32,000 bases of DNA from Candidatus Heimdallarchaeota archaeon (GCA_030614005.1 JAUWKS010000012.1:34276-66275); one strand, 5' to 3'; positions 260 to 24,174 are shown, numbered from the stretch's first letter. The notes: a model not told the origin generated them from the letters alone. Made by a program: numbers and translations.

Positions 260-366
260 GAAGAAGAAAAAATTTTCCTAATACAAAGACTCAAAAAGAG
301 AAAAAGAGTCAAAAAAACAACTAATAATGGGCCGGTAGATCAGACTGGAAGATCGCCTGATTTGCA

Positions 367-400
367 ATAGATAAAAGGCTGCGGGCCAAATCTAAAAAAT
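367..400 (+). other. Archaeal tRNA intron with a relaxed bulge-helix-bulge
   Basis: 5' bulge C365 A366|A367. Intron helix TAGAT(368-372)/ATCTA(390-394) with inner GGC/GCC. Central helix TTTG(361-364)/AAAA(395-398) has one G.A mismatch. 3' bulge A399 T400|T401. Confidence 0.85.
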
Positions 401-405
401 TTCAG

Positions 406-439
406 GAGGCCGTGGATTCAAATTCCACCCGGTCCACCA
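406..439 (+). repeat. tRNA 3'-end repeat, source copy (GAGGCCGTGGATTCAAATTCCACCCGGTCCACCA)
   Basis: This 34-mer recurs four more times almost intact and once partially on the same strand. Confidence 0.95.
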
Positions 440-1046
440 CCTTCTTTTCTCTTTTCCACCTCGTTCTGTCCTTCTTTTTATTTTTATTGTGTGGTATCTG
501 TTACCATTAAAAATTGGATTAATAGAACAAAATTATTTTTACTCATTTTAAAACCTAGAGTTCGAAAAATCTCTTTAGCTTAACAGGATCAGCTCTATCT
601 TCATCATCAATCAGTATAAACACACCGACATTTCTTTTGATGTATTCCTTGCTCCAGTCCTCTTTTATCTTCCATCCTCCTGTTGCAAACACTCCGTTAT
701 CCATATCGTAGAAAGGAACATGGGTGTGGCTGAGGATAATTTTATCTGTCTGAAGAATCTTTGGAAGAAAGTCTATGCTGTTAGTTATTAACTGTTTCTT
801 CATGTTAGTTGCCGCTTGATTCCAAGTTTCATTCACTCGTTTCTTAAGACCAATGTTATGTCCATGGCAGATGATAAACCGACCTTCTAGAGTATTTAGT
901 TTCACATAGGGAACTACTTGGATGTCCGGTCTATCGAATAGCAAGTTTCCTTCGTGTCCCATCCCACCTGTTACAAAGACTAACTTTTCCTTAAATCCCT
1001 TCTCAATACTCCAGTCAACAAAAGAGTCTAATGCCTCCTTTCCTGT
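440..1046. repeat. ~600 bp left end of segment 1, repeated in diverged form at 16830-17443
   Basis: Non-coding 441-554 vs 16831-16944 has 14 mismatches in 114 nt (hand count). The encoded phosphoesterase parts are about 80% identical in amino acids (hand count). Confidence 0.95.
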
Positions 1047-1190
1047 TTCATCGAAATTATCTAAGAAATCACCGTTCATAATAATTATATCTACTTTCTT
1101 TGACGCGCTTTCTAGCGCTTCTTTGAATTCATCCTCTAAACATCCTTCTGCACCTAGATGTACATCACCAACCACTATTGCAAGAGTCAC
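555..1190 (-). CDS. Calcineurin-like metallophosphoesterase
   Basis: Motifs GDVH, NGDFLD, TGGMGHE (in place of GNHD/E), CHGH and SHTH. GTG start overlaps the helicase stop by 4 nt, with a GGAGG SD upstream. Confidence 0.9.
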   Translation of the reverse strand: MTLAIVVGDVHLGAEGCLEDEFKEALESASKKVDIIIMNGDFLDNFDETGKEALDSFVDWSIEKGFKEKLVFVTGGMGHEGNLLFDRPDIQVVPYVKLNTLEGRFIICHGHNIGLKKRVNETWNQAATNMKKQLITNSIDFLPKILQTDKIILSHTHVPFYDMDNGVFATGGWKIKEDWSKEYIKRNVGVFILIDDEDRADPVKLKRFFEL

Positions 1191-3502
1191 CCCGCTAGAT
1201 CCTCCTTTGTCTTTTGTACTAAAAATGAGTTGACTATTCCAATAGAATCTTCTGATACATTAGCAAATAAAGGTAAGATTGACTCTTGAGTTTGCTTATT
1301 TATTAGAGCTTCATTAACTAGTTTCCTCATTTGTTCTGCTACTTTTTGGAATTCTCTAAAAAGAAATGCCGCATTGCCTAACTCTCCACCTCTATCATAA
1401 ATAACTATTTTATTCTCGTGTACGTTCACCACTGTTCTAAAAGAGGGCTCTGAAATATGCAATGCTATTTCTGTACTCTTTAGAATAAGGTCTTTCAATA
1501 AACTTAGTGCTTCTCTTTTCTTTTTATTGCTTGACTTCTTAGCTGAAAAAGTCACCTCTACTAAGAAACCACTAGTTTTCTCTTGCGAGTGGAAAACCTG
1601 CTCGTCTTGATGATTATCATCTATTTTGTTACCTGTTTTCGTGTACCTCACAACTTCAGCAGTTTCTCTTTGAATGACCATTTTGCCAAATCGAATATTT
1701 AGTTCAGCAAATCTAAACACTCGTGCCTGTTTGTCAATTTGGATAGAAGGAGCCTTTAGTTTGTTTTGTTCAATTGATGATTTATTAATTTGAAGCTTTT
1801 CTACAACAATCTTCCTCTCTAGCGATTTTTCAACTCGGTAGATATCTCCCTGTCTTCCTAGGTAAAGGAGGTTACCCTCTAAAGCCGTTCGTAATATTCT
1901 TTGCTCCTCAATTTCACCAATTATCCGTTCAAAATTATTATCAAGACTTCTCTCAACTAGTAACCTTCTTTGCCCTGCAGATCGAATTTTGTGGTTTCGT
2001 ATGAACTGTAATAGCTCTTGTTCATCAGCTATAATTAATTCACGTCTATCAGCAGAAACTTTGTGATTTATAGTTCGAAGAATGCCGTCTGCTATTAGCA
2101 TAACGATTGCTGTCTGAGTTATTTGCTTGCTTTCCAATGTTTTGCTGAAAGCAAGAATTTCTTCAATTGTTGTTATCCCCATATATATTCTGAATAACAC
2201 AAAAGCTTTCATTCTTTGTAAGGACTGTGAGTTAAACAATATTTGTTCAGCAGTGTTCTCTTCAAGAATGGTCTTTATTATTCGATAATTTTCCAAATAA
2301 TACTTATCCAATACTCGTTCTGTGTCTAATATTAGTGTAAAATTCTTTTTCTGAGAAATATCTTGAAATCGCAATCTTCCCATTCTTTGTATTAGCCCAT
2401 TCTTACCTGTTATCGGCCAGCCTATATTGATAATATGTTGAATTTTTGGTATATCTATTCCTAACTCAAGCAATGATGTAGTGAATAGAAATCGAAGTGA
2501 TCCATCCATTATTCTCTTTATAATATCTGCTTTATCAGATTCTGTTAGTTGACTATTGATACACATAAATGGTGAGTTTTGTTTTACTATCTCTAATGGT
2601 AAATCTGTTTTTATCATCAATTGTTCATTAAATTTCGCCACTAACTGACTGACTTTTTGCACACTATCAATGAATACTAAACATATTCCCCCTATCCTTT
2701 GAAGATGTGGGTCGATTCGCTCAAGTATGAATTGTTCTAGTGAATCCTTAGGAAGGATCATCACTCGAATCACTCCCCTTTTGCCTACAGCTTTTACAAT
2801 CTTTGCGCTTGGCAAGAAATTATCTCGAAATGAAGCAACATCCTTTACTGTAGCTGAAGCAAGAATTACTCTTAACTTTGGATTCGTTTGTTTAAAGGCT
2901 GCAATAAACTCTCGAACATGAGTTAAATATCCTCCCGAACCTGCATGTATTTCGTCAAATACCATTATATCAGTTTGTTTAATCCAGTCGAGAAAACCAT
3001 ATTTATCTTCCTTGAAACGTCTGTAGAACAATTTATCTAAAGTTGCCAAGATGATCTGTGGTTTCTTCTTCTCAATTTGTTCCAAGTCTTGTTTTGATAG
3101 GTCGCCATTGTATCTGCTATAGGTGATCTTTTTCCCTGTTGCTTCGAGAATATGATTGCAATAGCGAGTTAATCTTTGTTCCTGGTCAGCAGCAAGCTGC
3201 TTGGTTGGATAGATAATGATTGCATTAGAAATCTTCTCATCTATTAATTCTTTAAGTATTGTAAATAGAAACACTTCTGTTTTTCCAGCACCAGTCCCTA
3301 CTGTGAGAAAAAGGTCATCACCAGCAAGAATTTTCTTCATAGCTTCAATCTGGTATTTGTAAAGAGTGTAGGGAAACGCTTGTTTCAATGCTTTACCAAG
3401 CTTCACCATACCTACTTCAGGATCATCAATATAATGATTAGTTTTCTCACTCTCTTGTGGTTGGATATTAAAGGTTGCTTTAACGATGCAGTGGTTTGGC
3501 AA
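1187..3502 (-). CDS. DEAH-box SF2 helicase, YprA/MrfA (DUF1998-like) family
   Basis: Q motif YKYQ, I GTGAGKT, Ia YPTKQLAADQ, Ib ATLDKL, II DEIH, III SAT, V TTSLLELGIDI, VI QRMGR. ALEGNLLYLGRQGDIYRV and IYDRGGELG resemble the MrfA/DUF1998 C-terminus, but the terminal Cys cluster is absent. Confidence 0.85.
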   Translation of the reverse strand: MPNHCIVKATFNIQPQESEKTNHYIDDPEVGMVKLGKALKQAFPYTLYKYQIEAMKKILAGDDLFLTVGTGAGKTEVFLFTILKELIDEKISNAIIIYPTKQLAADQEQRLTRYCNHILEATGKKITYSRYNGDLSKQDLEQIEKKKPQIILATLDKLFYRRFKEDKYGFLDWIKQTDIMVFDEIHAGSGGYLTHVREFIAAFKQTNPKLRVILASATVKDVASFRDNFLPSAKIVKAVGKRGVIRVMILPKDSLEQFILERIDPHLQRIGGICLVFIDSVQKVSQLVAKFNEQLMIKTDLPLEIVKQNSPFMCINSQLTESDKADIIKRIMDGSLRFLFTTSLLELGIDIPKIQHIINIGWPITGKNGLIQRMGRLRFQDISQKKNFTLILDTERVLDKYYLENYRIIKTILEENTAEQILFNSQSLQRMKAFVLFRIYMGITTIEEILAFSKTLESKQITQTAIVMLIADGILRTINHKVSADRRELIIADEQELLQFIRNHKIRSAGQRRLLVERSLDNNFERIIGEIEEQRILRTALEGNLLYLGRQGDIYRVEKSLERKIVVEKLQINKSSIEQNKLKAPSIQIDKQARVFRFAELNIRFGKMVIQRETAEVVRYTKTGNKIDDNHQDEQVFHSQEKTSGFLVEVTFSAKKSSNKKKREALSLLKDLILKSTEIALHISEPSFRTVVNVHENKIVIYDRGGELGNAAFLFREFQKVAEQMRKLVNEALINKQTQESILPLFANVSEDSIGIVNSFLVQKTKEDLAG

Positions 3503-3504
3503 GT

Positions 3505-4023
3505 CTAATTCTCTCCTTGGATTTTAGCAGCGTATAAAATTGAAAATATTGAACTAAATTCATCCTTTAAAAAATCATTTATTTCTTCATCGGTTGTATA
3601 TTCTTCTCCTTTCGAATAAAATTGGATTATTCCAGAAATGCATTTTGTTATCGCTTCTTTTCTTCCCTCTCGAGATAAGAATCTGATATTTGATGAAAAA
3701 TTTTGAATTATTATTTCTTCTTCACGTTCTTTTAGAGCGATTTCTTTATTCAATTTTGTTCTATTATATAATTCAGCATGTGCTTGTGGACTAATTTGTA
3801 AATGTGGAGGTAATGCTTGCCCTAATGCGAGACTGTTATAGAGTTGAACCAAATTATCTAATTGGGAACCTTCTTTCAATCCAAAACGATATTTGTACTT
3901 TTGTCCAATACGCCATATTAGACCTTTTTTCTTCAACTCCTGAAGAGTTAGATACGTTTCTGTAAGAGCTATACCTGCTCCATCAGCTATTACTTTGGCT
4001 TTTTTTTGGATAGGCAATTCCAT
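3505..4023 (-). CDS. Hypothetical protein, possible N-terminal winged helix
   Basis: 172-aa ORF tightly coupled in the operon. ETYLTLQELKKKGLIWRIGQKYKY resembles a wHTH recognition helix and wing. Confidence 0.65.
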   Translation of the reverse strand: MELPIQKKAKVIADGAGIALTETYLTLQELKKKGLIWRIGQKYKYRFGLKEGSQLDNLVQLYNSLALGQALPPHLQISPQAHAELYNRTKLNKEIALKEREEEIIIQNFSSNIRFLSREGRKEAITKCISGIIQFYSKGEEYTTDEEINDFLKDEFSSIFSILYAAKIQGEN

Positions 4024-4059
4024 ATTTTATGAAATCACCTAACAAATACCATATCACTT

Positions 4060-5556
4060 TTATCGTATCCATTCTATTTCAAGCTCCTCAAATCGATTGC
4101 AATATTCAATTACTCTAGGAGAAAATTTATTCGGTTGCAGGTTATTTTCTTCCAGAAAATCCTTCTCTCGGTCTTCAAAAAGGAGAGACGAAGATTTAGA
4201 ACAAGTAAGGTTTTGTTCTACTTTCTTAGCAATTCGCTTATTTGGGTAATACACTAACGGTTTAAAATTCGCTTTTTTGATCTCCTCTTGACAGATCCTA
4301 AAGGCTATGTCCTTCATTTGTTCCCTTTCTTCTATGTCTAATGAAATCCATTGAGCAGATAATCGCCAGAATTTCACAGGTATCTCTCTTTCACAATCTA
4401 TTATCTTTACCATTAATTGCTTTTCAAGAAATTTCTGATGAATAGCTGAGAGTAAATTATCAAATTCAACAATAAATTGCTTACAAGCTTCTCTGAAGGT
4501 TCGATAGGTTTTTCCATTGAAGTAACATGGTTCACTAAATAATTGTTGTTTGAGCTTGTAAAGCATCTCTTCTCCTCTTTTGTTAACAACATAGACAATC
4601 TCCCCTTTAAATACATCAAGTTTATCAACTAATGAATTAGTTATTCTTTTGTCAAGAATAGCATGTACTAGCTTTATGTGTCCTGCGAACTTTAACGCTT
4701 CACACAAATCAAGCACCAGTCCCATCCATGATAGATCAGAGTAATAACTGAAATGACTAAATCCCCCAACACCTAGATACTTTAAATCTAATTCATCAAG
4801 TATATTCCACAATTCCTCCTCACAGAGAATGAACATATAATTAAACAGAACATCTCCTTTTGTACATGCCATTGTTTTGTAATTGCCTGTTGTTCTTTTA
4901 TGTAGATATAATCGATTGGACACTCGATTGCTGATAGCAAAATCAAAAGTGCTTATTAGTTCATTAGTTACCATCCAAGTAATATCTGCTGCTGATGCTT
5001 CTGAAAGATTACAGAGAACACTTGTATTACAATTATATCCATAAAGATAGGCATCACATATTGCATCAACAAAAAGCTGCCACTTTTGTTTTTCTGAAGA
5101 GAACCCTCGCAATGTTTGAACCAAGGCTAATCGATTAGATAGATTCGACCGCCAAAAGACATTGTTTAATCCAAAAGAAAATCGCATTACATCTACCGTA
5201 AGAGCTCTTTGACAGTCCATTCGCTCAACTTTAAACCATCCTTGAGGAGAAGAAATGCGAACATAATGGCACCCTGCAGAAACTAATTGTTGTTTTATCT
5301 CCTCAGAAATTCCCTGATAGTCATATACGAATTGTATTACTGACAAATTATATTGAAGCTTGTCTACATGAAGATTATAATCTTTAATAATCACTTGTTG
5401 TCCAGGCAGTATTTGAAAACCTAAGCTCACTTTATTCTTTTTCCGGGCTTCATCAAGCGTTAATCCAGTAAGTTTATACACTTCTTCATTGAAGATATGT
5501 TGATTATCCTTAACACATAATATATACTGTTGATCATCCTTTCTACTTTTACTCAA
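4060..5556 (-). CDS. cas1: Divergent stand-alone Cas1 / casposase-like integrase with a ~130-aa C-terminal extension
   Basis: Cas1 motifs in the correct order: N-terminal beta domain VIQFVYDYQGISEEIKQQLVSAGCHYVRISSPQGWF; E186ASAADITW (EG/AxAAxxYW/F); R-x3-R then GDVLFNYMFILCEEE (DPxNAxLNYxY); GGFSH268 (GFLH); LVLD283LCE286ALK (LALDLMEEFR); then VYVVNKRGEEMLY...FREACKQF. TTG start with a GAGGAGG SD. Confidence 0.8.
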   Translation of the reverse strand: MSKSRKDDQQYILCVKDNQHIFNEEVYKLTGLTLDEARKKNKVSLGFQILPGQQVIIKDYNLHVDKLQYNLSVIQFVYDYQGISEEIKQQLVSAGCHYVRISSPQGWFKVERMDCQRALTVDVMRFSFGLNNVFWRSNLSNRLALVQTLRGFSSEKQKWQLFVDAICDAYLYGYNCNTSVLCNLSEASAADITWMVTNELISTFDFAISNRVSNRLYLHKRTTGNYKTMACTKGDVLFNYMFILCEEELWNILDELDLKYLGVGGFSHFSYYSDLSWMGLVLDLCEALKFAGHIKLVHAILDKRITNSLVDKLDVFKGEIVYVVNKRGEEMLYKLKQQLFSEPCYFNGKTYRTFREACKQFIVEFDNLLSAIHQKFLEKQLMVKIIDCEREIPVKFWRLSAQWISLDIEEREQMKDIAFRICQEEIKKANFKPLVYYPNKRIAKKVEQNLTCSKSSSLLFEDREKDFLEENNLQPNKFSPRVIEYCNRFEELEIEWIR

Positions 5557-5557
5557 T

Positions 5558-7600
5558 TCAATTCCTCCTCATTTTCTTTCTCTTTTGAATCAATTTGAAT
5601 GTAGTATTACACATTGAACAGCTAACAGGTTTCAATCCCTGAGCTGGTCTATCATCTGTGCCAAAATCTTCAATTACAATTTCTCTCCCCTCCACTAAAC
5701 AAGTAGAACATAAATAAGCATATATCTCTTTTTTATCTGCTGAATATCCCACAAAACTTCTGGTAATTGCATCATAGAATTCTTCAACAGTATAAATTAT
5801 AGTTACCTTTTCTTTTCTTATAAAATGCTTGCAACCAACAGTTGTACTTCTGAGTGTTTTGGTAGCTCGAATATGGTTCTCACTTGAAACTTTTCGTTCA
5901 GCTATATTTATTGCTCTTCGCCAGAACATACAACGTCTTTTTTCAAACCAATGACAATCCCCACAAACGACTTTGAAATGTGCCGGGAAATCTTTACTTG
6001 TATAATAATCAAGACTTCTCCCCAAGGGTGGTTTGGCTGTTAGCGTCTTCACAGGATACCCACTTTTAGATAGACTTTGGATTGCTTGCTTTGCTTCAAA
6101 AGGATTAATGGTAAGCATTGAGCAAATTTTGTTTTGAGTAATAGGAGACTCAGTATTTGCCAGCAGTTCTTTTAGTGCTCGTTCAATTGTTTGTCTATCC
6201 ATTTTCTTATTTATTGGTGATTCCTCAACATCATAGGATTTTTGCAAAACTCTATTCAAGAGCTTTAGACTTTCTCTTGAATCTTGAGTCATCTGATCTC
6301 TAAAGCAATTTAACATCTGGGTAATTTGGAAAAGTACATAACTATTATTAGAAGCTGCTAGAATACTAGCAATGGTTTCCTCTTCATCTTTGAGAATATC
6401 TAACCTACCGATTAAAAATTGCAAATCATCAAATTGTAATTTCCCTCGTGTAAAATCGCTAAATATTTCCTGTACTAGTTCCCATGTAATGATGTCATTC
6501 TCAGTTTTTTTTCGGATAGTTCTCAAAAACATCATAGGATCGTTTAGCATCTCTTCAAAGTAGGTTGAAGCAATAATGTATTGTCTTCCAAATGTAGTCA
6601 AAGTGAAACGACTATAACTACTTTGATCTTTCTTTACTAAAGCAAATGCTCCTAGATGTCTTTCTTGCAAACTCTCAAATAGGGATATATTTTGGAAGTA
6701 TTTCGTATGGAAAATTAATTCAGTAAGGTGCTGTCTCATTTCATCATCTGTTTTCTTTTTCTTTGCTTGATATATTCGAAAGTACGTTGCTTTCTGTAAT
6801 CGTTCAATGAGTTGTTTTTTCGAAGGGGATCCTGAATATAAACAAAACAGAATAATACTCAAGAAAGCATCTTGTAATGCGTCCTCGTTTAATTCTTGAT
6901 ATATAGCTCTCACAGCCTCATTTGTTGAGATCATTATGTTATTAAATCCTCTTTCAATTTCTTCGGCAGGAATCAATCCGGTAGAAATAAAATGCTTTCG
7001 TACATGTGTTCTCTCTCGTTGAGGTAGAAGCAAAAGGATTGGGTCAATGTTATCAGAAATCCAAGACTTGCGAGCTCTATTAAGCGACTTATTCTCATCA
7101 AATGGATCAATGAAAATATACGCATTGACGATTGGCAGCTGGACTTTTGCTTTCAAAGCATCGTCTCGACTCTTTCGATATAACAGATTTCGAGTCAACG
7201 TGTTATAACTTGTTATGATTAGCTTATTCGCTGCTAGAGGGTGACTGTTTCCTTTAAATTTTGAAAACGTAGAAGCAATCTTCATCCCTGCAAGAGTTTT
7301 TTTGGAGGTCTCTGCAGTAACTTGATCCTCATCGTAATTAGCATAATTATAGATTTTCTTGGCTTGTTCAGAGGTTCGAACAATAATCATTGCTGTTTGG
7401 TCGGATAATCTAGCTGAAAGTAAAGCTATAGTGGTAGCTAATTGTAACTGGTCTTCAGGGAGAATTTCATAAAAAAATATGTCTGTTTCACATAGAACCG
7501 TTTTTCGAATAATGCTTAAGTTATCAACACAAGTAAATGGATAATCTCGAAAGATAGTGGTTATGCTAATGGGTAATTGTGTTCTATAAGTTGTTATCAT
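5558..7600 (-). CDS. Inactivated Hel308/Ski2-like protein with winged helices and C-terminal Cys clusters
   Basis: Degenerate RecA1 domain: no Walker A, Ia-like AMIIVRTSEQAKKIY, Ib-like IITSYNTL, II-like IFIDPFDE. Hel308-type WH (LIERLQKATYF...LTTFGRQ), a second wHTH, then CGDC-C-C and CSTC-CSMC. Confidence 0.6.
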   Translation of the reverse strand: MITTYRTQLPISITTIFRDYPFTCVDNLSIIRKTVLCETDIFFYEILPEDQLQLATTIALLSARLSDQTAMIIVRTSEQAKKIYNYANYDEDQVTAETSKKTLAGMKIASTFSKFKGNSHPLAANKLIITSYNTLTRNLLYRKSRDDALKAKVQLPIVNAYIFIDPFDENKSLNRARKSWISDNIDPILLLLPQRERTHVRKHFISTGLIPAEEIERGFNNIMISTNEAVRAIYQELNEDALQDAFLSIILFCLYSGSPSKKQLIERLQKATYFRIYQAKKKKTDDEMRQHLTELIFHTKYFQNISLFESLQERHLGAFALVKKDQSSYSRFTLTTFGRQYIIASTYFEEMLNDPMMFLRTIRKKTENDIITWELVQEIFSDFTRGKLQFDDLQFLIGRLDILKDEEETIASILAASNNSYVLFQITQMLNCFRDQMTQDSRESLKLLNRVLQKSYDVEESPINKKMDRQTIERALKELLANTESPITQNKICSMLTINPFEAKQAIQSLSKSGYPVKTLTAKPPLGRSLDYYTSKDFPAHFKVVCGDCHWFEKRRCMFWRRAINIAERKVSSENHIRATKTLRSTTVGCKHFIRKEKVTIIYTVEEFYDAITRSFVGYSADKKEIYAYLCSTCLVEGREIVIEDFGTDDRPAQGLKPVSCSMCNTTFKLIQKRKKMRRN

Positions 7601-7606
7601 CCTACT

Positions 7607-8245
7607 TCACTCCTGGTTTAGCAATAGCTCTTCTAGGTGTTCGGGCAGAGAAAGCAACTCCTCGCCAACAAACCGATCGATGTACTCCGCCATTTCTATC
7701 TCGAGTGATTCAGGAGAGCTCTCATCAATAATCGAAACTGGGAACTTGTCCAGAAATTCCTCACTCAATTCTTTCACTGTTTCTTGTTTGTTTGTCACTC
7801 TTTCAATAATAGTTTCTAAGTGCTTCTTGCTAGTTTTAAGTTGCAGTAAAAATGAATCATCAGGTTCTTCTGCGAGTTGACTTTGGATTTGCATTTTTAT
7901 ATTGAATTCTGGTTGACTGATTATCAAAATAAATTGGAGAAGGTTATTATTTATCTCAAAAAGCAATGGTTGAGTGTCTGATCGTGGTAGTTTTTCAATT
8001 ATCAACCATTCAGTTAGTTTCTTGACTTTCTGTTTGAATGTCATCAAGCTCATTTTCTCTAGCACTTGATTGTACAATGACAGTACGGATGGGTACGTCA
8101 CTTGACCGAATTTTATTAAATTATTTACTAGCAACTCACAGATAACTAGCAAATTAGCAGTGATTTTAATGTCTGGATTATCCAATTCCACTGAATTCGC
8201 TGGAACTGATTGTTGAAAAGCACTAGTGTGAGTCATTTCCGTCAA
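7607..8245 (-). CDS. Hypothetical protein, possible winged-helix DNA-binding domain with acidic C-terminus; first gene of the operon
   Basis: 212-aa ORF. VTYPSVLSLYNQVLEKMSLMTFKQKVKKLTEWLIIEK is wHTH-like. Its stop overlaps the SD (GGAGTGA) of the next gene. Confidence 0.7.
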   Translation of the reverse strand: MTEMTHTSAFQQSVPANSVELDNPDIKITANLLVICELLVNNLIKFGQVTYPSVLSLYNQVLEKMSLMTFKQKVKKLTEWLIIEKLPRSDTQPLLFEINNNLLQFILIISQPEFNIKMQIQSQLAEEPDDSFLLQLKTSKKHLETIIERVTNKQETVKELSEEFLDKFPVSIIDESSPESLEIEMAEYIDRFVGEELLSLPEHLEELLLNQE

Positions 8246-8462
8246 TAATTTAAAGGAAAATTATGTTTTTAAAGTACTAAAAGTATAAAAAAACGAAAAG
8301 GTTCGAAAGAAGAGTTCGAAAAGAAGGCAGGATAAGGCTTCTTTTAACTCTACGGAAGATTACTTTATGTCCCTTTAGAATTATATGTAATCCCATTTTT
8401 TCCTTTTTTTCTGTATTTTTGCCCTTTCTTTGAGAAATTTTCTCTTTGATTTCTCTAAATTT

Positions 8463-8567
8463 CTCGTGTCGGAACGACGACCGTTAAAAAAGACCACCGA
8501 AGTGTGGGCTTTTAGGTCGCACGAGGGGAGCGTTCAGCGACAGTTTTTTGGTCAAGGACATTCCCTC
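8463..8567. other. GC-rich multi-stem structured non-coding element
   Basis: 45 of 80 nt are G/C over 8463-8542 in an AT-rich background. Nested inverted repeats: TGTCG/CGACA, GAACG/CGTTC, CGACC/GGTCG, AAAAGACCAC/GTGGGCTTTT. Alternative pairings: CTCGTG/CACGAG and GAGGGGA/TTCCCTC. Confidence 0.6.
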
Positions 8568-8634
8568 TTACTTCTGAGCTGTGAATTTTTCTCAAAATTT
8601 TTTTGCTTCTTAAAATTGCAGAGTTATTCTTAAA

Positions 8635-10281
8635 TTACTCTTTTTCCGTACATAATACAAAAAATGTTTTTACATACTGGTGTAGGACAGAATTTTGAAT
8701 AGTGTTTGTTTTTACTATTTCTATTCCAAACCGATTTTTCAAATCTGTATAAAGTCTCTTACTATTATTTAGAACAATTAGATAATCCTTGCAGTATGCC
8801 AAAGATTTCAATAAGACAAGTAAGTTATCATTAGGTTTTAGATTTAATCTAGCTATAGTTTTCCTCGAACGGAAATGATAATGATCATTTTGTTCAAGAA
8901 AAAGCATTAACTGATGAGGTACGTTAGAGAATAAAGGTAGAAGCTTGAGAAGATGAGTGATAGGAAGATTTCCAGTGTATTCATAAGCAGCTAACCGACC
9001 TTTTTTTATTTCCAAAAAATCTGCTAAATCTTGCTGAGTCCAATGGTTATTTTTACGAACTTTTCGCAAATAATTAGTGCAATCCGGAATTAGAAGCATA
9101 GGGAGAAGTTCAAAATTAAAGAAAGTAGTATCATTTATGGTAATAAGAGCTTCAGGATTAATGTCTTTAACATACAAACGTTCGAATAATTTTGTTTTCC
9201 TGCTCTTTAGATATTGTAATAAATACTCTATCTTAGTTATATGCCTTGATTTAAGATAATTACCTATTATATCTTTAGAGATTGCCATAATTTGAAGAAC
9301 ATAACTTTCACCATAAATTGATTTGTGATGATAAATGGAATACTTAATTTTATATTGATCCAATACTTTTCCAAAAGCTTGTACAAATTGTCTTGATGCA
9401 GATGAAAAACTAATACCTCTAATATAAGAACCATCAGCATCCAATACTCCACTCCAGAATTCCCAGCGAAGAGTCTCATCCGACGTAAAAATAAGAGGTT
9501 CTTTCAAGGAATCATATTTTTTCCCAGTAATAGGTTGGTCTGTAAGGAAATTGGTTAACCTAACAATCCATTTGTTATTCAAATGCAACAACCAAATCTT
9601 CTTTTCACCTGATATTTTGCCTTGAATACCAAATAATTGATTTGCTAATTTTTGCATCATAAGCATGTGGTCTTGTGAGAAATCCACCAATTCTATATTA
9701 TGGTAGTTCAAGTGACCATCACCAATGACTACTCCCAAAAAATAAGCTAAATCTTTTGAGAGTCTTGTAGGCATATGGAAGTGTTCTCCCCGAGCAGATT
9801 GGAAAGGAACATATTCTTGTGTGAGGAATTCTTGCCAAAAGTCACTTAACCGGAAAAGAGGGAAAGGCAGTCGCTGCTGGTTTTCAGTATAGTCGATGAT
9901 CTTTTGTTGCCACTTCTTGATAGAATAAGCAATAGCTGTATCTTGAAAATAATAACTGCATCGCTCAGCTAAAGCAAGTGATTGTTTTCTAATCTGTTGG
10001 GAAATCTCACAAGGTAATGTAACATAAGGCAATCGCTGTAATAATCGTTCTCCTGACTTAAAATCGATTTTACGAATCAAAATGGAGTAAAGATTTAGGA
10101 TATTAGGTTCAAGGAATATTTTTGATTGCTTATTCAGCTCAATTAGTTTATTCGCTGTTAGCCACTGGTTTTTAGGTGTGGGCAAGTTATCAATAAGCAA
10201 AAAGTCTGTTTGCCAAGATTTAGGGATTTCATCAAACATCTTATTGAGTACTTTGTAATTGGGAATATAAAACTCCCCCAA
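8635..10281 (-). CDS. Stand-alone LAGLIDADG endonuclease-family protein with an XRE-type HTH
   Basis: Two motifs, LAYFLGVVIGDGHL and FWSGVLDADGS. HTH LRKVRKNNHWTQQDLADFLEIKKGRLAAYE. No intein splicing motifs seen. Confidence 0.85.
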   Translation of the reverse strand: MGEFYIPNYKVLNKMFDEIPKSWQTDFLLIDNLPTPKNQWLTANKLIELNKQSKIFLEPNILNLYSILIRKIDFKSGERLLQRLPYVTLPCEISQQIRKQSLALAERCSYYFQDTAIAYSIKKWQQKIIDYTENQQRLPFPLFRLSDFWQEFLTQEYVPFQSARGEHFHMPTRLSKDLAYFLGVVIGDGHLNYHNIELVDFSQDHMLMMQKLANQLFGIQGKISGEKKIWLLHLNNKWIVRLTNFLTDQPITGKKYDSLKEPLIFTSDETLRWEFWSGVLDADGSYIRGISFSSASRQFVQAFGKVLDQYKIKYSIYHHKSIYGESYVLQIMAISKDIIGNYLKSRHITKIEYLLQYLKSRKTKLFERLYVKDINPEALITINDTTFFNFELLPMLLIPDCTNYLRKVRKNNHWTQQDLADFLEIKKGRLAAYEYTGNLPITHLLKLLPLFSNVPHQLMLFLEQNDHYHFRSRKTIARLNLKPNDNLLVLLKSLAYCKDYLIVLNNSKRLYTDLKNRFGIEIVKTNTIQNSVLHQYVKTFFVLCTEKE

Positions 10282-10284
10282 AAA

Positions 10285-10734
10285 CTACTTGAAATACTTC
10301 TCTTTTTGAATTAACCATTCAACTTTGTAGGCTGCTAAATCATTTACAGAAAAAAATTCATATCCTGCTTTCCAAAGGATTAAACCAATTATTATAGCTG
10401 ATCGACCAAGAACATCAGTGATATCAATTAGTAATTCCTCTTTGGTTATATCATAATAATGTTGCAGGTAATATTCAGAGAGAAAGAGCATTTCAAGGGA
10501 ATTTTGAGATGAATCCAATTGATAAAGTGCTCCTGCAAGATAAATTCGAGCTAAATCGCTTTCAGTAGAAATTAACTCATGTTTAATTTGATTAAATGTA
10601 ACCTCATTAGTAAAGGTAGCAAGAGCCCAACAAGCTTTTGCTCTAACCACAACGTCGTCATTTTCAACCAGTAAAGCTATAGACTGCATGTCATTTGTAC
10701 TAAATAATTCAGTAAGCAGAGCTTCTCTATTCAT
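10285..10734 (-). CDS. HEAT-repeat protein
   Basis: VVVRAKACWALATF and LARIYLAGALYQL resemble HEAT_2/PBS-lyase repeats. Coupled to both neighbours (3 and 12 nt gaps). Confidence 0.65.
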   Translation of the reverse strand: MNREALLTELFSTNDMQSIALLVENDDVVVRAKACWALATFTNEVTFNQIKHELISTESDLARIYLAGALYQLDSSQNSLEMLFLSEYYLQHYYDITKEELLIDITDVLGRSAIIIGLILWKAGYEFFSVNDLAAYKVEWLIQKEKYFK

Positions 10735-10746
10735 AGTATGGAATCC

Positions 10747-12846
10747 TCATTCAATATGAATTTCAACATTATCTACCCAAGATGTTACACCAAATAAACT
10801 TTGTTGACTCTCAAGAAATGATTTATTGACTTTCACATAAAGAATAGCTTTGTCGGCATTAAGAAGGTTTTTTCGAAACTCAAGTAAATTTGCTGCTTCT
10901 TTTATTAGGTGTGGAAGATCTGGTTCGTAAGAGATATTACTCCGATCTTTACAGCTGACTAATATCATCTTGTCATTTTGGAAGGCAATATGATCAATTT
11001 CAAATGGCTTACTGATATTTGAAAGGAAAACATTTGAAGCTACTTGATAGTCTTCTGTTATTAGCCTATCTCGTATTTCTTGCTCATAAGTTGTTCCATC
11101 TCCTCTTCGATTTTTAATATCATGAACTTTTATTGATAATGGCAATTTTTCTTGTAGTTGTTTTTTATATTGAAGAAGAACTAGCAAGTTTGAATTCTGT
11201 GTTAATTGATACTTGAGTTCGAGTATTCCAAAATAATCCTTCTCAACTAGAAATGAATGAATCATTTGAAATACTGTACGTCTATTTGGTTCGATAACTT
11301 TTTCAGAAATTACACCTAAATCAACATTCGTTTGTTGAGATTCTCTGTTAACAACATCTTTTATGTAAGAATAGAGTAATTGGAAGTCAGTTACTGAAAT
11401 ATTCATCAATAGGCAGTATTCAGTAATATTGGGTGAGTTTAAAGAGGTGATTACTGACAAACATTCTAATGCTTCATTTTGCAATTCTGCCTTAGATACA
11501 ACTTCGCTTGTTATAGGATGAATTTGACTTGATTTATTTTCAGTTAGTAAAGCTTGTTTTTTTGAGTATTCTAACATAGAGTCAATTATTAAATCTAGTG
11601 AATCCCTTATGTTCATAGTAGCCGATAAACCAATGAGAAGAACCCCACAAGATAAACCATATTGTTTAGTTATTTGAAAATGAGTGTGTAAACGCAAAAT
11701 ATCTTGATTAATAAATAAGAATGGAAACACATACACAAATTTATTAATTTTTCTTGTTGTGTGTAATAAATCTGCTATTGCATATTCAAGCTCACTACTA
11801 AGTGTTTTATCTGATGTTTTTATCTCACACAGTAGTAGAAATTGTAAACGTTTGTTTACGGCTATTACATCAACAATTTTTCTATTACCATTGATATTTT
11901 CATCTGAATTATTGAAGTTTAATAATACTTCAGGTAGTAGTATCAAATCTCTTGTGGTTGCAAATTGTTTTATAATATTCCTAACCAACAACTCATATGA
12001 GAAATCGCAATGGTCACCCAATGCACTGGAATATGACTTGAGAGTTTTGAGAGAAAGGCCTCTGCACTCAAGAAGAGACATTAGTTGTAAATCTTTTTCT
12101 GCAATTTCTGTTAACTCAAAATCTGGAGATGAGAATAAAACCGTAATTGATTTTCTTTTCCCACAATAAGGAAAATAAAGACATTTCTCAGGCTTTCTTC
12201 CAGTGTGCTGTCTGATTATTCGAGTTTCAATAATCATTGTTTCTTCACCATCTTTAGAAGCAATTACTAATTCTGATTTTTTAAACCAATCTTTGATGTA
12301 ATGATTCAATTGGTATGACAAGGAAATAGATCCACCATCTGTTAATGTTCCAATTGCCTTAATAAAAAGTAAACCTTTATCTCTATAGATTGTGAATTTA
12401 CGATTTCCTTTACCGCCATTGATAATGGGTGTTAGTAAGCATACGTTCGGTAGTTGTACGGAATTTAATAGAGTTAGAGCTTTTTGATACTTCTTTGTTG
12501 GTATAAAGTATGAGTTATTTATCATATTAATCTGGCAAATAATTATTTCCCTATGTTGGAAATCTGATGAATTTGAAAGATGAATGTATATACCATTTTT
12601 AATTTTAGTAATTTTAATGAGAATGTTAAGGTAATGGGTTCCTGCTGAAACTGACTTGATTTGTATTTGCAATATGTTAGATCTATTTCCAATTTCAAAC
12701 CATTGAGTTATTTCCTTTGGTATGTTGATTATGCTATTTTTTAATATCCGTCCCTTTAATTCTATTATTCCATTAGAATATATACTAAAACCATTTTTCT
12801 TTGATGTCATATCTTTTTGAAAGACTAATTCCTTTTCCATTTTCAT
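10747..12846 (-). CDS. Multidomain protein with two PD-(D/E)XK nuclease-like domains and an AbrB-like beta-rich N-terminus (ORF could extend to 12945)
   Basis: KIVDVIAV...LLCEIKT and YEQEI...FEIDHIAF...LVSCKD. N-terminal GRILKNSIINIPKEITQWF is AbrB-like. ATG at 12846 is preferred over TTG at 12945. Confidence 0.6.
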   Translation of the reverse strand: MKMEKELVFQKDMTSKKNGFSIYSNGIIELKGRILKNSIINIPKEITQWFEIGNRSNILQIQIKSVSAGTHYLNILIKITKIKNGIYIHLSNSSDFQHREIIICQINMINNSYFIPTKKYQKALTLLNSVQLPNVCLLTPIINGGKGNRKFTIYRDKGLLFIKAIGTLTDGGSISLSYQLNHYIKDWFKKSELVIASKDGEETMIIETRIIRQHTGRKPEKCLYFPYCGKRKSITVLFSSPDFELTEIAEKDLQLMSLLECRGLSLKTLKSYSSALGDHCDFSYELLVRNIIKQFATTRDLILLPEVLLNFNNSDENINGNRKIVDVIAVNKRLQFLLLCEIKTSDKTLSSELEYAIADLLHTTRKINKFVYVFPFLFINQDILRLHTHFQITKQYGLSCGVLLIGLSATMNIRDSLDLIIDSMLEYSKKQALLTENKSSQIHPITSEVVSKAELQNEALECLSVITSLNSPNITEYCLLMNISVTDFQLLYSYIKDVVNRESQQTNVDLGVISEKVIEPNRRTVFQMIHSFLVEKDYFGILELKYQLTQNSNLLVLLQYKKQLQEKLPLSIKVHDIKNRRGDGTTYEQEIRDRLITEDYQVASNVFLSNISKPFEIDHIAFQNDKMILVSCKDRSNISYEPDLPHLIKEAANLLEFRKNLLNADKAILYVKVNKSFLESQQSLFGVTSWVDNVEIHIE

Positions 12847-12997
12847 AGTTTTTGAGATATTGTTTCCTAACACCAGAGTCATAATTATCAATATAATATA
12901 AGAGTAAGGAGTTATAAGTATTTTGTGGAAATCCAAACTTTCCAAAATATGCTTAAATTGCGAAAAATACTTAATCTATAAGGTAAAATAAGTAACT

Positions 12998-13621: not shown

Positions 13622-16540
13622 TTAAATTTTATAATTTATACAATCATCTGAATGAAACTCTTTTTTCTTGCAGAAAAATGGTAGTCCAGGTTTTATAAGG
13701 TTTTTATTTTCTTCTTCAAAATGCTTACATGCGTTATTCAATTTAAGAAGTAGTTCTAATGGATCAAAAATTTTTTCAGTATCTTTTAATCCATAAAAAT
13801 AGGCTTTTCTTACAGCGTTATCTAGTTCTTCATGTAATTTTTTTAGAATATTATCTCCGGGTAATTCTAAGGTTCTATATATTTCTCTTAATGACAAATG
13901 CTTTTCGTCTCTTAGTTTGTTCCGGGTTATTCTTAATTCTCTAGCTTTATTTGCTACATCAATACAGAGTTTAACTTTTTCATCCAAGTTATCTTGAATA
14001 TCAATATCATTTATAACACCAAATTGAGGCCAGGGAAAAGTATTATAGATTGTTGTTATTGTATATCTATAATCTCCTTTCAAAGTTGAACAACGTGCTT
14101 TTATCCATTCCCAATGAAATGAACTCTGTAAAATACCAAATGAATAATCATCACCTAAAGGAAATGCTATTAGTGCATCATTTGGTCGAATATTTGATGA
14201 AACAAAATCAAATATGGATCTTTTTGCAACCCGACTACAAGCAATGTATCTTGGAATATTCTTGATTAGGTTAATTAAATCCTTTCTAGTTCTCCAAAAT
14301 AACCACCATTTCTTTAAATGATTTTGACGAACGGTATCTTTTTTCTCTAGTTTTTCATATAGCTTCATTTCTTCATCAGCTTTTTGTTCAATTGTTGGGA
14401 GAACCTTTTGTTTTATTATTTTAAATGGGGTTTTAAATTTCTGTGCATCAAATAAAGACATCGATTGAAAATCTATCACTAATCGGTCTGGTCGAGATTT
14501 TATATTACCCAGCATTGCGTTTGCTATTAAGTAAGGAAAAATTACTTCTCTCGCTTTAGGTTCCTTTTTGAAAATATCTTTAGCTTGTTGTCGAGATAAA
14601 ATAAACCCACTGTGTCCATGAGTTTGACCTTGGTAACAAGTTCTTGAATTCTTATTTGTAATTAATGCTTTTGCTGAGATGACATCTAATTTTGGTGAAA
14701 GAGAAGAAGGTATCCATTTTAGATCATATTCCTCGAGCAAATTATTGGGGTTTTTCTCATCATAGAATAGTAATTTCTTATTCTTAGATTCATCAGTCTC
14801 TCCCTTAATCCAATTTACAATGGATACGTGAACTTGAGCTTCCCCACTCCAAGGCATAGTGGAAACAGCTTCTATAATAGTTCCATTATTTTCAATAATA
14901 TACTCCAACCCATCTTTTTTTGAATAAGTTTGTCTAATTGTATTTGTACCAACAAGTCCTGCTTTACCACCTTCCTTTAACTTGTTATGAGCTTTGCGAA
15001 ACCAATAAACACAGTAATCTACTCTACCATTTACATCTGGATATTGTTTTCTTAACTTCTCCACATATTCTGGTCCAAATTCTTCAATCATCTTATTTTT
15101 AGCCTGAAAAGGAGGATTACCAATGATTATATCTGCTTCGGGCCAGTCAATAAATAGGGCATCATCAATGATGAAATTTGTATTTAGATTATCAAAAGGT
15201 AATGGACTCTCTGCATCATAATTCAACAAACGCTGACTATTGAATTCATTAAAAGTATCTATTGCATCTTTCTTAGCGAATGATAATGTTATTTTAGCAA
15301 GTTCAATAGCAAAAGGATTAGTATCAATTCCGAAAAATTGTGTTGATTTAATTTTAGATTGTAAAGAATGTTTTTTCTTTTCAAGTGATGGATATTCAGT
15401 TATCATTTTTCGTATTAAATCAAGTTCAATATGTTTTAATTCCCTAAACGCTACAGAGAGAAAATTACCACTTCCACAAGCAGGATCTAGAATTCTCATT
15501 TCACTTAAAGAGTTCCAAATCCTCTCCAACTCTTTTAATGATTTTGCCTCAGTTATTTTTAATCTAATCGGTCGAAGAATAGTTGGTTCTACTATTTTCA
15601 TAATGTCTGATTCTCTTGTATAATGAGCACCATATTTGTGACGTTCATCTTTTCTTAGACTTGATTCAAATATATTGCCAAAAATAGCAGGTTGGATTTT
15701 AGACCAATCATGAAGAGCTACTGCGTGTAAATTTTCCAATTCACTCTTGCTTAATTCAATAGGTTGAATGATTTTAAAAATATCACCATCAAAATATGAA
15801 ACTTCTTTAAATCTACCTCCTGTTTCTTTTTTTGTTGAATTCATCTTAGTAAAAAGTAATTTAAAAAGATCGTAGCTATTAGCTCCATTTATACAATCTT
15901 GAATTAATTCTGTGAAAAAACCTCGAACTGGAAATAAACCAGTATCTTCAGCAAAAAAACAAACTAAACATTGGAGTGTAAACCTTTGAGCTTTTTCATA
16001 ATTAACACCTCTCTTTATTAAACTCAAATATAATTTTGCTATTTTTTGTGCTGCTACTTCTGTAACAGCAACTCTATCATTATTGAATATCGGTTTTATA
16101 TCTCTTCCATGGTAAAGAAATGATAAAGCTCTCCATCTTTTCGCTAAATTATCTATATGTATTATATCAACTGGATCGGGTTGTTTGTTCCAATCAAATA
16201 TCCAAAATTCATCAAAATTACACAAAATGACATAAGAAGGTCGCAATTTATAGATGTTTATCCAGTAGAATTTAGCTTGACTTATATGTTTGTTTAAATC
16301 TTCACCTCTTGATTTCATTTCTATCAATACTCTTTCAGGCCAAAATAAGTCTGCATAATAGGTTTTATTTTCGATTTTTATAGAGGCTTCAAAAGAAGCA
16401 CCACACTCAAAAACCCCTTCATGTCCAAATGCTTCGAATAAATGGTTCAAGAATGTTTGGGATTCCTGTTTTTCTCTACCAGATAATTTTTTTGCAAAAG
16501 ATAGAAATTCTTCAAGGTTGCTTTCAATTAGCTTTGTCAT
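13622..16540 (-). CDS. MmeI/YeeA-like (Type IIL/IIG) fused restriction endonuclease and N6-adenine methyltransferase
   Basis: N-terminal ADLFWPERVLIEMKS nuclease motif, GAHYT, motif I LDPACGSGNFL, motif IV IGNPPF, and an MmeI-like C-terminal TRD (YGILQS-type region FGILQSSFHWEW, YRYT, TFPWP). Confidence 0.9.
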   Translation of the reverse strand: MTKLIESNLEEFLSFAKKLSGREKQESQTFLNHLFEAFGHEGVFECGASFEASIKIENKTYYADLFWPERVLIEMKSRGEDLNKHISQAKFYWINIYKLRPSYVILCNFDEFWIFDWNKQPDPVDIIHIDNLAKRWRALSFLYHGRDIKPIFNNDRVAVTEVAAQKIAKLYLSLIKRGVNYEKAQRFTLQCLVCFFAEDTGLFPVRGFFTELIQDCINGANSYDLFKLLFTKMNSTKKETGGRFKEVSYFDGDIFKIIQPIELSKSELENLHAVALHDWSKIQPAIFGNIFESSLRKDERHKYGAHYTRESDIMKIVEPTILRPIRLKITEAKSLKELERIWNSLSEMRILDPACGSGNFLSVAFRELKHIELDLIRKMITEYPSLEKKKHSLQSKIKSTQFFGIDTNPFAIELAKITLSFAKKDAIDTFNEFNSQRLLNYDAESPLPFDNLNTNFIIDDALFIDWPEADIIIGNPPFQAKNKMIEEFGPEYVEKLRKQYPDVNGRVDYCVYWFRKAHNKLKEGGKAGLVGTNTIRQTYSKKDGLEYIIENNGTIIEAVSTMPWSGEAQVHVSIVNWIKGETDESKNKKLLFYDEKNPNNLLEEYDLKWIPSSLSPKLDVISAKALITNKNSRTCYQGQTHGHSGFILSRQQAKDIFKKEPKAREVIFPYLIANAMLGNIKSRPDRLVIDFQSMSLFDAQKFKTPFKIIKQKVLPTIEQKADEEMKLYEKLEKKDTVRQNHLKKWWLFWRTRKDLINLIKNIPRYIACSRVAKRSIFDFVSSNIRPNDALIAFPLGDDYSFGILQSSFHWEWIKARCSTLKGDYRYTITTIYNTFPWPQFGVINDIDIQDNLDEKVKLCIDVANKARELRITRNKLRDEKHLSLREIYRTLELPGDNILKKLHEELDNAVRKAYFYGLKDTEKIFDPLELLLKLNNACKHFEEENKNLIKPGLPFFCKKKEFHSDDCINYKI

Positions 16541-16793: not shown

Positions 16794-16829
16794 AGGATGC
16801 CGTGGATTCAAATTCCACCCGGTCCACCA
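16794..16829 (+). repeat. tRNA-Ala 3'-end copy 1 (att/TSD-like)
   Basis: Matches 404-439 at 35/36 (G408 to T). Confidence 0.95.
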
Positions 16830-16944
16830 CTTTCTTTTCTCTTTTCAGACTCGTTCTGTCCTTCTTTTCATTTTTATTTTGTGCTATCTGTTACCATTAA
16901 AATTTAGACTAATAGGACAAAATCATTTTTGTTCATTTTAAAAC

Positions 16945-17443
16945 TTAGAGTTCGAAAAATCTCTTTAGCTTAACAGGATCAGCTCTATCTTCATCATCAA
17001 TTATAATGAATACACCAATATTTCTCTTTATATAGTCCTCATTCTCCATTAACTCTTCTTTTACCTTCCACCCTCCTGTTGCAAATATACCATTGTCCAT
17101 ATCATAGCTTGGGAAGTGTGTATGGCTGATAATTAGCTTGTCAGTTTTGCGGATTTTTGGCAAGAAATTACTATCATTTGTTATCAAGTGGTTCTTCAAG
17201 TTAACTAAAGCTTGGTTCCATGTTTCATTTACTTGCTTCTTCAGACCAATATTATGTCCATGACAGATGATAAACCGCCCTTCTAAAGTGTTTAATTTTA
17301 TATAAGGAACAATTTGGATATCTGGTCTATCGTACAGTAAATTTCCTTCATGTCCCATCCCTCCTGTTACAAAGACAATTTTTTCCTTAATACCTTTTTC
17401 AGCACTCCAAAGCAAAAATGAATCCAGTGCTTCTTTATCCAGT
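16945..17443 (-). pseudogene. 5'-truncated paralogue of the 555-1190 metallophosphoesterase
   Basis: Homology extends upstream to KEALDSF and, after a +1 insertion near 17437, to TG. The first ~48 codons, with GDVH and GDFLD, are missing. In-frame stop at 17458-17460. Confidence 0.9.
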
Positions 17444-20370: not shown

Positions 20371-20404
20371 GAGGCCGTGGATTCAAATTCCACCCGGTCC
20401 ACCA
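20371..20404 (+). repeat. tRNA-Ala 3'-end copy 2
   Basis: 34/34 identical to 406-439. Confidence 0.95.
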
Positions 20405-23114: not shown

Positions 23115-23144
23115 CCGTTGATTCAAATTCCACCCGGTCCACCA
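23115..23144 (+). repeat. tRNA-Ala 3'-end copy 3
   Basis: Matches 410-439 at 29/30 (G414 to T). Confidence 0.95.
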
Positions 23145-24139: not shown

Positions 24140-24174
24140 GGAGGCCGTGGATTTAAATTCCACCCGGTCCACCA
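24140..24174 (+). repeat. tRNA-Ala 3'-end copy 4
   Basis: Matches 405-439 at 34/35 (C419 to T). Confidence 0.95.

Follow-up and report, generated by a model that had tools for sequence, protein, structure and literature searches.

A divergent Cas1-like protein and its gene set in tRNA-associated islands of Heimdall-group Asgard archaea: a possible Cas1-encoding mobile element

Background

Cas1 acts in CRISPR adaptation and in the transposition of casposons, its two known roles, and the step between them is an open question. Diverse Cas1 homologues of Asgard archaea, along with ARAMP and putative new mobile elements, were reportedly treated by Makarova et al. in 2020. Here we present an analysis of a 32,000-nt stretch of DNA from a Candidatus Heimdallarchaeota archaeon (GCA_030614005.1, JAUWKS010000012.1:34276-66275; the whole stretch is called the window below), in which a six-gene operon encoding a very divergent, apparently active Cas1 relative is the core of a ~13-16 kb island inserting beside tRNA genes in Heimdall-group Asgard archaea. 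In our judgement there is about an even chance that this island is a tRNA-targeting mobile element which lacks both a family-B DNA polymerase (PolB) and terminal inverted repeats and uses the Cas1-like protein as its integrase. The hosts are the closest known relatives of eukaryotes, and their mobile elements are barely charted.

Among the closest described systems are the casposons. For family-2 casposases the insertion target is a tRNA 3' end, with the T-psi-C arm serving as a leader-like determinant, and insertions occur in tandem (PMC9939771). Extremely diverged Asgard Cas1 homologues, some suggested to lie in unknown mobile elements, figure in a summary given in PMC8730458. The paper on Heimdallarchaeum mobile elements (PMC8813620) mentions no Cas1, and a recent survey of YprA systems (bioRxiv 10.1101/2025.09.15.676423) mentions neither a phosphoesterase nor Asgard archaea. 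The gene set analysed here is not described in those two papers or in the casposon papers (PMC4046053, PMC9939771).

Results and discussion

A six-gene operon with a divergent Cas1 relative

The window has a G+C content of 29-37%, and its closest protein matches are annotated as Candidatus Heimdallarchaeota. A sequence-only reading of this DNA had proposed a coupled minus-strand operon for a winged-helix protein, a dead Hel308-like zinc protein, Cas1, a second winged-helix protein, a YprA-like helicase and a phosphoesterase. All six open reading frames (ORFs) were recovered where that reading had placed them (Table 1), in the 5' to 3' order 212-aa protein, 680-aa protein, Cas1-like 498-aa protein, 172-aa protein, helicase and phosphoesterase. 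The junction lengths of 6, 1, 36, 2 and -4 nt were reproduced, as were the non-AUG starts of the three enzymes (TTG for the Cas1-like protein and the helicase, GTG for the phosphoesterase) within a start-codon series that runs TTG, ATG, TTG, ATG, TTG, GTG in operon order. The purine-rich Shine-Dalgarno motifs GGAGTGA, GAGGAGG, GGAGA and GGAGG also lie as proposed, 5-10 nt 5' of the starts of the 680-aa, Cas1-like, helicase and phosphoesterase genes, respectively.

The Cas1 call, made by eye, proved correct at the level of fold and active site, because both the predicted fold and the catalytic residues agree with Cas1. Single and profile searches gave no match for the 498-aa protein in Pfam (to E 10), NCBIfam, PADLOC or the PDB sequences, and the protein falls outside all the curated Cas1 sequence models (PF01867, NCBIfam and PADLOC Cas1). 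Its AlphaFold model (predicted local distance difference test score, pLDDT, 69; predicted template-modelling score, pTM, 0.70) has the two-domain architecture of Cas1, with an N-terminal beta domain and a C-terminal alpha-helical catalytic domain. Searched against the PDB with Foldseek, the model returned as top matches only a casposase (6opm) and Cas1 structures (E 1.5e-7 to 1e-3), the best of which spans residues ~44-375. VIA-align, an independent all-against-all structure aligner, gave Z 18.3 to the Archaeoglobus Cas1 4n06 (251 residues aligned, root-mean-square deviation 3.6) and Z 17.4 to the Methanosarcina casposase 6opm, with unrelated folds at or below 8.9, and the AlphaFold DB clusters returned the same Cas1/casposase answer.

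An alignment of the protein with its 18 homologues comprises 19 sequences. Comparison by hhalign with 25 canonical Heimdall Cas1 sequences from the same class (P 5.9e-5) placed E186, N239, H268, D283 and E286 on the catalytic or structural columns of Cas1. These five positions are kept in 18-19 of the 19 family members; E186, H268 and D283 are invariant, and position 286 is Glu or Asp in all but one of them. The family is small: 19 proteins were found by a word-indexed search of 5.8 billion clusters, and a full profile search of 1.84 billion representatives gave 24 matches at E <= 1e-3. The family profile reaches the distant proteins P0047, P0049 and P0057, which have weak PF01867 matches (1.2e-4, 2.5e-5 and 2.8e-3), and it is only transitively, through such distant members, that the family appears to be linked to PF01867 at the level of sequence.

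Two distant Cas1-like members from metagenomes, P0040 and P0044 (locus L090), are 1342-1599 aa long and carry a PD-(D/E)XK nuclease domain N-terminal to the Cas1-like domain, an arrangement reminiscent of Cas4-Cas1 fusions.

Among the six proteins, sequence models recognise two, the helicase and the phosphoesterase. The 771-aa helicase matches the Pfam DEAD (2e-27) and Helicase_C (2e-15) models and has the motifs GTGAGKT and DEIH in its translation; the phosphoesterase call was borne out by a Metallophos match (1.7e-6). The label YprA-like found indirect backing. The DUF1998/MrfA zinc-binding domain (MZB) went undetected in the window helicase, which aligns through that region of a paralogue where helicase, MZB (8e-6) and Metallophos are fused (26% identity over 733 aa). 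The domain is also present in neighbours of P0037 and P0038, and because these fused and neighbouring relatives carry it we place the helicase in the YprA/MrfA lineage.

For the 680-aa and 212-aa proteins, sequence searches of Pfam (to E 10), NCBIfam, PADLOC and the PDB gave no match. In the poor model of the 680-aa protein (pLDDT 59.5), Foldseek matches the N-terminal alpha/beta part at E ~1e-4 to superfamily 2 (SF2) helicases, among them XPF/Hef with its inactive helicase-like domain; Walker A is absent and eight Cys are invariant. A dead helicase with zinc sites is plausible but less than secure, and the proposal of a dead Hel308-like zinc protein stands to a moderate degree in its helicase-like fold, missing Walker A and cysteines. 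The winged helix proposed for the 172-aa protein finds a weak TrmB/ArsR-type signal (TrmB at E 0.005, Atlas leads to an ArsR-type helix-turn-helix (HTH) at 0.86, under 0.9), and that of the 212-aa protein finds sub-threshold Atlas leads to the Cdc6/ORC winged helix.

A conserved gene set joined by fusions

The idea that these genes form a single machine is backed by gene order and by fusions. The same six-gene order is kept at at least 12 loci, where the Cas1-like proteins are 40-75% identical to that of the window; the genes were syntenic at every homologous locus examined, and no member of the 498-aa family was found outside the set or its fused equivalent. The fused equivalent is a compact three-gene paralogous system on contig C63 of the window's own genome (35626-44827; L086 5626-14827). 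Its LAGLIDADG-HTH protein is 37% identical to that of the window. In its 1378-aa protein, a counterpart of the C-terminal, winged-helix/Cys-rich part of the 680-aa protein (E 2e-4) is fused to a Cas1-like domain (E 5e-9), whose motifs GAGLFH and DLIEP are nearer to canonical Cas1, and its 1063-aa protein is the helicase-MZB-Metallophos fusion introduced above. Furthermore, unrelated metagenome contigs again bring together a Cas1-like protein, an MZB helicase and a Metallophos protein, with the phosphoesterase and helicase following Cas1-like fusions. Since fusions join them in paralogous systems, there is strong comparative evidence that the proteins of the gene set would act together.

The compact paralogue is present in three to four copies that often end contigs (C63, also C8:199-3594, C29:27568-29499 and C88). 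On its LAGLIDADG side the C63 copy is bordered by a tRNA-Leu(UAG), beyond which lies TnpB; HsdM adjoins the helicase fusion. Two divergent loci have a NurA-HerA(-Mre11-Rad50) cluster within a few kb of the module (L004 16015-21301 and L089 1-1497).

Upstream of the operon, a LAGLIDADG-HTH gene accompanies the module at every locus that reaches far enough (10 of 12), co-oriented at most and divergent at two. A HEAT-like gene was found at five of the 12 loci and on one further metagenome contig, and a gene for a NERD-like protein of ~720 aa in the window and at L002, L004, L053 and L057. Two conserved non-coding blocks, a GC-rich one and a second at ~8320-8381, lie in the 389 nt that separate the LAGLIDADG gene from the operon's first gene. 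Both are far better conserved than the flanking proteins in the alignment of eight loci. RNAalifold predicted 20 pairs in the GC-rich block, three with changes on both sides, and a scan of Rfam at the gathering threshold gave no match for it (8453-8543). The system might use this element as an RNA or as a DNA site for protein binding. The backbone of the island is the six genes, the LAGLIDADG-HTH gene and the structured non-coding element, often with the NERD-like/HEAT pair.

Insertion at tRNA 3' ends

The terminal phosphoesterase gene of the operon faces the 3' end of a tRNA-Ala(UGC) gene 115 nt beyond its stop codon. This gene, which contains an intron of 34-36 nt, was missed by default ARAGORN and at the Rfam gathering threshold. 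Its last 28 nt occur in the window in five same-strand copies in total, where none would be expected by chance, and with flanks the repeat is 32-37 nt long. Together they form a 23.7-kb array in which the tRNA is followed by 16.4 kb, a repeat, 3.6 kb, a repeat, 2.7 kb, a repeat, 1.0 kb and a last repeat.

The first segment carries the six genes, the LAGLIDADG, HEAT and NERD genes, a small AbrB-like ORF and the MmeI-type gene. The second opens with the same non-coding terminus (88% identical) followed by the remnant of a phosphoesterase paralogue (79%), and is what is left of a sister element that had previously been inserted at this tRNA; it also carries two secreted-type proteins. A lone UvrD-like helicase gene (20494-23097) occupies the third segment and a DUF433/DUF5615 toxin-antitoxin pair (23166-23763) the fourth.

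Empty sites were found in four congeneric genomes (G071, G074, G077 and G079), where the tRNA-Ala is followed within ~40 nt by a homologue of the GTPase gene that in the window sits beyond 24980. Also, cold-seep metagenome contigs (runs X1-X3) break at 441, 16792 and 16839, which are the edges of repeats. The breakpoint sequences at 441 and 16792 have no 16-mer match in the window's genome, and that at 16839 shares 16-mers with contig C9 only. These data concern contigs only, three joints with sides of 21-22 nt having been disregarded, and the breaks suggest other insertion sites or variants in the same samples. Some of the contigs match the element terminus from 441 on, yet run upstream into DNA absent from the window's genome; others diverge at the edges of repeat copy 1.

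The association with tRNA genes extends to other loci. At eight of the 12, the phosphoesterase stop adjoins a tRNA 3' end and the tRNA always has the same relative orientation; the distance from stop to tRNA is 16-115 nt at Ala (two loci and the remnant), Pro and Lys (three loci), and ~500 nt at Glu. At L002, the 34-nt tRNA-Pro 3' end is repeated 14.2 kb away, and precisely the nine genes and two others lie between the two copies. Introns also occur in several other element-adjacent tRNAs, and in L057 the position of one may be non-canonical.

Distribution and exchange of the module

Within the class, the Cas1-like family was found in a single genus, in five of 11 genomes, two of which have three to four copies. 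In G072 (contig C11; L053) the tRNA-Ala that is occupied in the window's genome (G000, ~90% complete) also has the module next to it, in a divergent version. Between the two genomes the host flanks are 84-86% identical, the MmeI gene 92.7% (window 13582-16720 against G072:C11, L053 2498-5639) and the next cargo 89%, while the nine-gene module is only 64-72% identical. From this difference it follows that the ~13-kb module and not the cargo was exchanged at the same site between species. The repeat-bounded elements as a whole measure 14-16 kb. A degenerate repeat between the MmeI and NERD-like genes of G072 scored 14 against a null maximum of 13, but the null was a single one drawn from the window's shorter region, and we treated the repeat as non-significant; no degenerate repeat was found in the window.

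This distribution bears on the possibility that the genes serve DNA repair in the host, as an operon of MrfA/MrfB or Lhr-MPE type, and lie near tRNA genes by chance. Helicase-phosphoesterase pairs do exist in repair, and the helicase partially matches the ligase-associated DEXH model TIGR04121; the match, however, has 93 bits, far under the cut-off of 850. The module is also missing from six of the 11 genomes of the genus and from every other genus in the class, and it is multi-copy, repeat-flanked and matched by empty sites. We regard this explanation as highly improbable.

Defence cargo as an alternative

A serious rival, which we hold to be possible rather than likely, is that the module is a defence system carried as cargo by tRNA-integrated islands. 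The helicase and the metallophosphoesterase would then attack foreign DNA, the Cas1-like protein would cut DNA in a structure-specific manner or act as a DNA-capturing subunit, and sensing or extra effector functions would fall to the LAGLIDADG-HTH, NERD-like and HEAT proteins. It is to be taken seriously because of the YprA helicase-nuclease signature and the defence-island-like surroundings. A YprA-family helicase with an adjacent or fused nuclease is a hallmark of defence (bioRxiv 10.1101/2025.09.15.676423), such helicases with downstream or fused nucleases defining DISARM, Dpd, Druantia, ARMADA, BRIGADE and TALON, and the paralogous helicases here bear the MZB. The PADLOC helicase models BrxH, SngC and Cas3 match the helicase core at ~1e-19. 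The neighbours include the MmeI restriction-modification gene, HsdM, toxin-antitoxin pairs, the UvrD-like helicase and TnpB, and a patchy distribution with fast turnover is also typical of defence genes.

On the other hand, no PADLOC model matches any other protein of the module. Cargo would not be expected to lie always at the tRNA-proximal end with the same terminal gene next to four tRNA species, and the decayed sister copy retains exactly that terminus. Moreover, the island has no other integrase, and it is the module, not the restriction-modification cargo, that the species have exchanged. The mobile-element and defence readings are not mutually exclusive.

What moves the island

Domain scans of all ORFs in the 24-kb array and in the L002 element turned up no recombinase, and the single PF00589 match in the window's genome lies on another contig, C58. 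The Cas1-like protein is thus, as far as these scans reach, the sole member of an integrase family in the element. It is because of this, and because family-2 casposases target tRNA 3' ends, that we favour a casposon-like reading, in which the Cas1-like protein inserts the element.

With the Cas1 fold and catalytic residues, the synteny and fusions, the insertion with repeats, the empty sites, the patchy multi-copy distribution and the module exchange as direct observations, we infer every enzymatic role as follows. The Cas1-like integrase would join the element to the tRNA 3' end in the manner of family-2 casposases, and a staggered attack would duplicate ~32-37 bp of the target to give the direct repeat. 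The YprA/MrfA-like helicase and the metallophosphoesterase would unwind and trim the element ends, a preparatory role in line with the sequence-only reading, with the ATPase-dead helicase-like zinc protein and the winged-helix proteins as candidate DNA-binding subunits, and the LAGLIDADG-HTH protein might serve to recognise a specific site or to nick it. The host would supply gap filling and replication, because no polymerase domain was found in any ORF of 440-16829 or of the L002 element.

Several observations weigh against the Cas1-like protein as the integrase. Casposases need defined terminal nucleotides, and in neither the window element nor L002 were terminal inverted repeats found between the two ends. 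At 32-37 bp the direct repeat exceeds the 14-15 bp of casposon target duplications, and its length and fixed orientation would fit a conservative site-specific recombinase equally well: the direct repeats flank the element, yet they could equally be att cores. Four loci (L001, L003, L055 and L089) have no adjacent tRNA, and the search for a second direct repeat came up empty at L004, at L057 and for the compact C63 version. The defence hallmark described above and the restriction-modification, toxin-antitoxin and TnpB genes next to the module count on the same side. No excised form or activity was observed, and an integrase may act in trans, the genome being ~90% complete.

The island might accordingly be moved by an unrecognised or trans-acting recombinase, either a very divergent tyrosine or serine enzyme or a LAGLIDADG homing protein, with the Cas1-like operon serving replication, maintenance or end-processing. 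Repeats of 32-37 nt that run over the tRNA T-arm to the CCA in fixed orientation, with no inverted repeats, are what classical att-site recombination would leave; the homing-endonuclease-like gene of a Heimdallarchaeum element was proposed to act in site-specific insertion (PMC8813620), and the 212-aa and 680-aa proteins give weak Cdc6/ORC-type leads. We nonetheless consider this quite unlikely: two fully bounded elements (window 440-16829; L002 869-15066) contain no recombinase domain, the genome has the one PF00589 match, and homing would not generate direct repeats. A split SSV-type integrase, which would leave ORF fragments across the repeats, was rejected, as no such fragments are present. 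Aloposons (PMC8813620) were likewise rejected, there being no giant genes here.

If the Cas1-like enzyme is the integrase, a further step may be imagined. The array could have been built in a CRISPR-like manner, with each insertion made at the tRNA-side repeat and duplicating ~35 bp, and the element would then be a living intermediate between casposons and CRISPR acquisition, in which the helicase-nuclease pair, possibly with a structured RNA upstream of the operon, replaces the polymerase or Cas2. We regard this as rather unlikely.

Features of the window

The coordinates of the element and its repeats are collected in Table 1. Past the distal repeat of the array lies a PIN gene (24452-24850), and flanking the insertion site are genes for an Arf/Rag-like small GTPase, which has a long C-terminal extension, and for two Roadblock/LC7 (LAMTOR-like) proteins (24969-26252, 29733-30624). 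Arf/Rag-like GTPases and Roadblock/LC7 proteins are typical Asgard eukaryote-signature proteins.

Table 1. Features of the tRNA-Ala array and of the element, in window coordinates
Feature	Coordinates	Strand	Evidence or remark
tRNA-Ala(UGC), intron-containing, encoded CCA; integration target, 3' end faces phosphoesterase gene	329..439	+	Rfam RF00005 51.9 bits; ARAGORN with introns
Direct repeat copy 0, the tRNA 3' end	412..439	+	with flanks ~403-440
tRNA-proximal non-coding terminus of element	441..554		88% identical to 16831-16947
Calcineurin-like metallophosphoesterase, 211 aa, GTG start; terminal gene of element	555..1190	-	Pfam PF00149 1.7e-6; 59-76% identity at other loci
SF2 DExH helicase, 771 aa, TTG start; YprA/MrfA-like lineage	1187..3502	-	DEAD, Helicase_C
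172-aa protein, ATG start; probable N-terminal winged helix	3505..4023	-	TrmB E 0.005; kept at all loci
Divergent Cas1-family protein, 498 aa, TTG start	4060..5556	-	fold and E186, H268, D283, E/D286
680-aa protein, ATG start; SF2-helicase-like N-terminal part without Walker A, winged helix, eight invariant Cys	5558..7600	-	
212-aa protein, TTG start; first of the six genes	7607..8245	-	25-47% identity at other loci
GC-rich structured non-coding element, ~90 nt	8453..8543	not assigned	alignment of 8 loci, RNAalifold
LAGLIDADG-HTH protein, 548 aa; two LAGLIDADG motifs and C-terminal HTH_3	8635..10281	-	
HEAT-like 149-aa protein; optional companion	10285..10734	-	HEAT_2 E 0.009
732-aa protein with NERD-like nuclease domain; optional companion	10747..12945	-	NERD E 3.4e-4
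MmeI-type restriction-modification enzyme; cargo outside the exchangeable module	13622..16540	-	Pfam MmeI domains; 92.7% nt identity to G072
Direct repeat copy 1; far boundary of the segment with the six genes	16802..16829	+	
Truncated phosphoesterase paralogue; sister-element remnant	16948..17436	-	79% identical to residues 51-211
Direct repeat copy 2	20377..20404	+	
Direct repeat copy 3	23117..23144	+	1 mismatch
Direct repeat copy 4; distal end of array	24147..24174	+	1 mismatch

Comparison with known systems

The finding is best classed as a Cas1-encoding mobile element. If this is true, a Cas1-family protein that escapes all sequence models yet retains its active site, in a tRNA-targeting element with CRISPR-length repeats but no polymerase, inverted repeats or Cas2, would broaden what is known of Cas1-based DNA insertion. 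The partner set of helicase, nuclease, pseudo-helicase and LAGLIDADG protein is compact and testable, and Cas1-mediated insertion at a tRNA with a ~35-bp repeat can be tested directly in vitro. If instead the defence reading is true, this would be a YprA-type system with a Cas1-like component, which is undescribed in the casposon, Heimdallarchaeum-element and YprA papers cited here (a set that does not cover Makarova et al. 2020). The Cas1-like family may overlap with the Asgard Cas1 homologues of that study, but there are no ARAMP-type Cas5/Cas7 genes here.

With the family-2 casposons of Aciduliprofundum boonei and Methanosarcina mazei, the island shares a Cas1-family protein that stands alone, lacking both Cas2 and a CRISPR array, and has its catalytic residues intact, as well as insertion at tRNA 3' ends, tandem inserts, direct repeats at the borders and a patchy, multi-copy distribution. 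Unlike them, the window element has neither a family-B polymerase nor terminal inverted repeats, and its repeat is 32-37 rather than 14-15 bp long. Its Cas1-like protein escapes all Cas1 sequence models, and its partners are a YprA-like helicase, a metallophosphoesterase, a dead helicase-like zinc protein and a LAGLIDADG-HTH protein.

With CRISPR adaptation modules (Cas1-Cas2 with Cas4 or Cas3 helpers), the element has in common a putative Cas1-fold integrase encoded with a helicase and a nuclease, and a repeat of CRISPR-repeat length that would be duplicated with each insertion beside a fixed 'leader' side. The inserts, however, are gene-bearing segments of 1-16 kb and not spacers of ~35 bp; the genome, which is 90% complete, yielded no canonical Cas1 (PF01867) or Cas2 (PF09827), and the window no CRISPR array.

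From the YprA/MrfA-family systems, that is, MrfAB repair and the DISARM, Druantia, Dpd, ARMADA, BRIGADE and TALON systems, the window differs in that its nuclease is a calcineurin-like phosphoesterase and its helicase has no detectable zinc-binding domain. Their other signature components are absent here, and a Cas1-like partner is undescribed for them. What the island does share with these systems is a DExH helicase with a downstream or C-terminally fused nuclease, in a defence-island-like setting.

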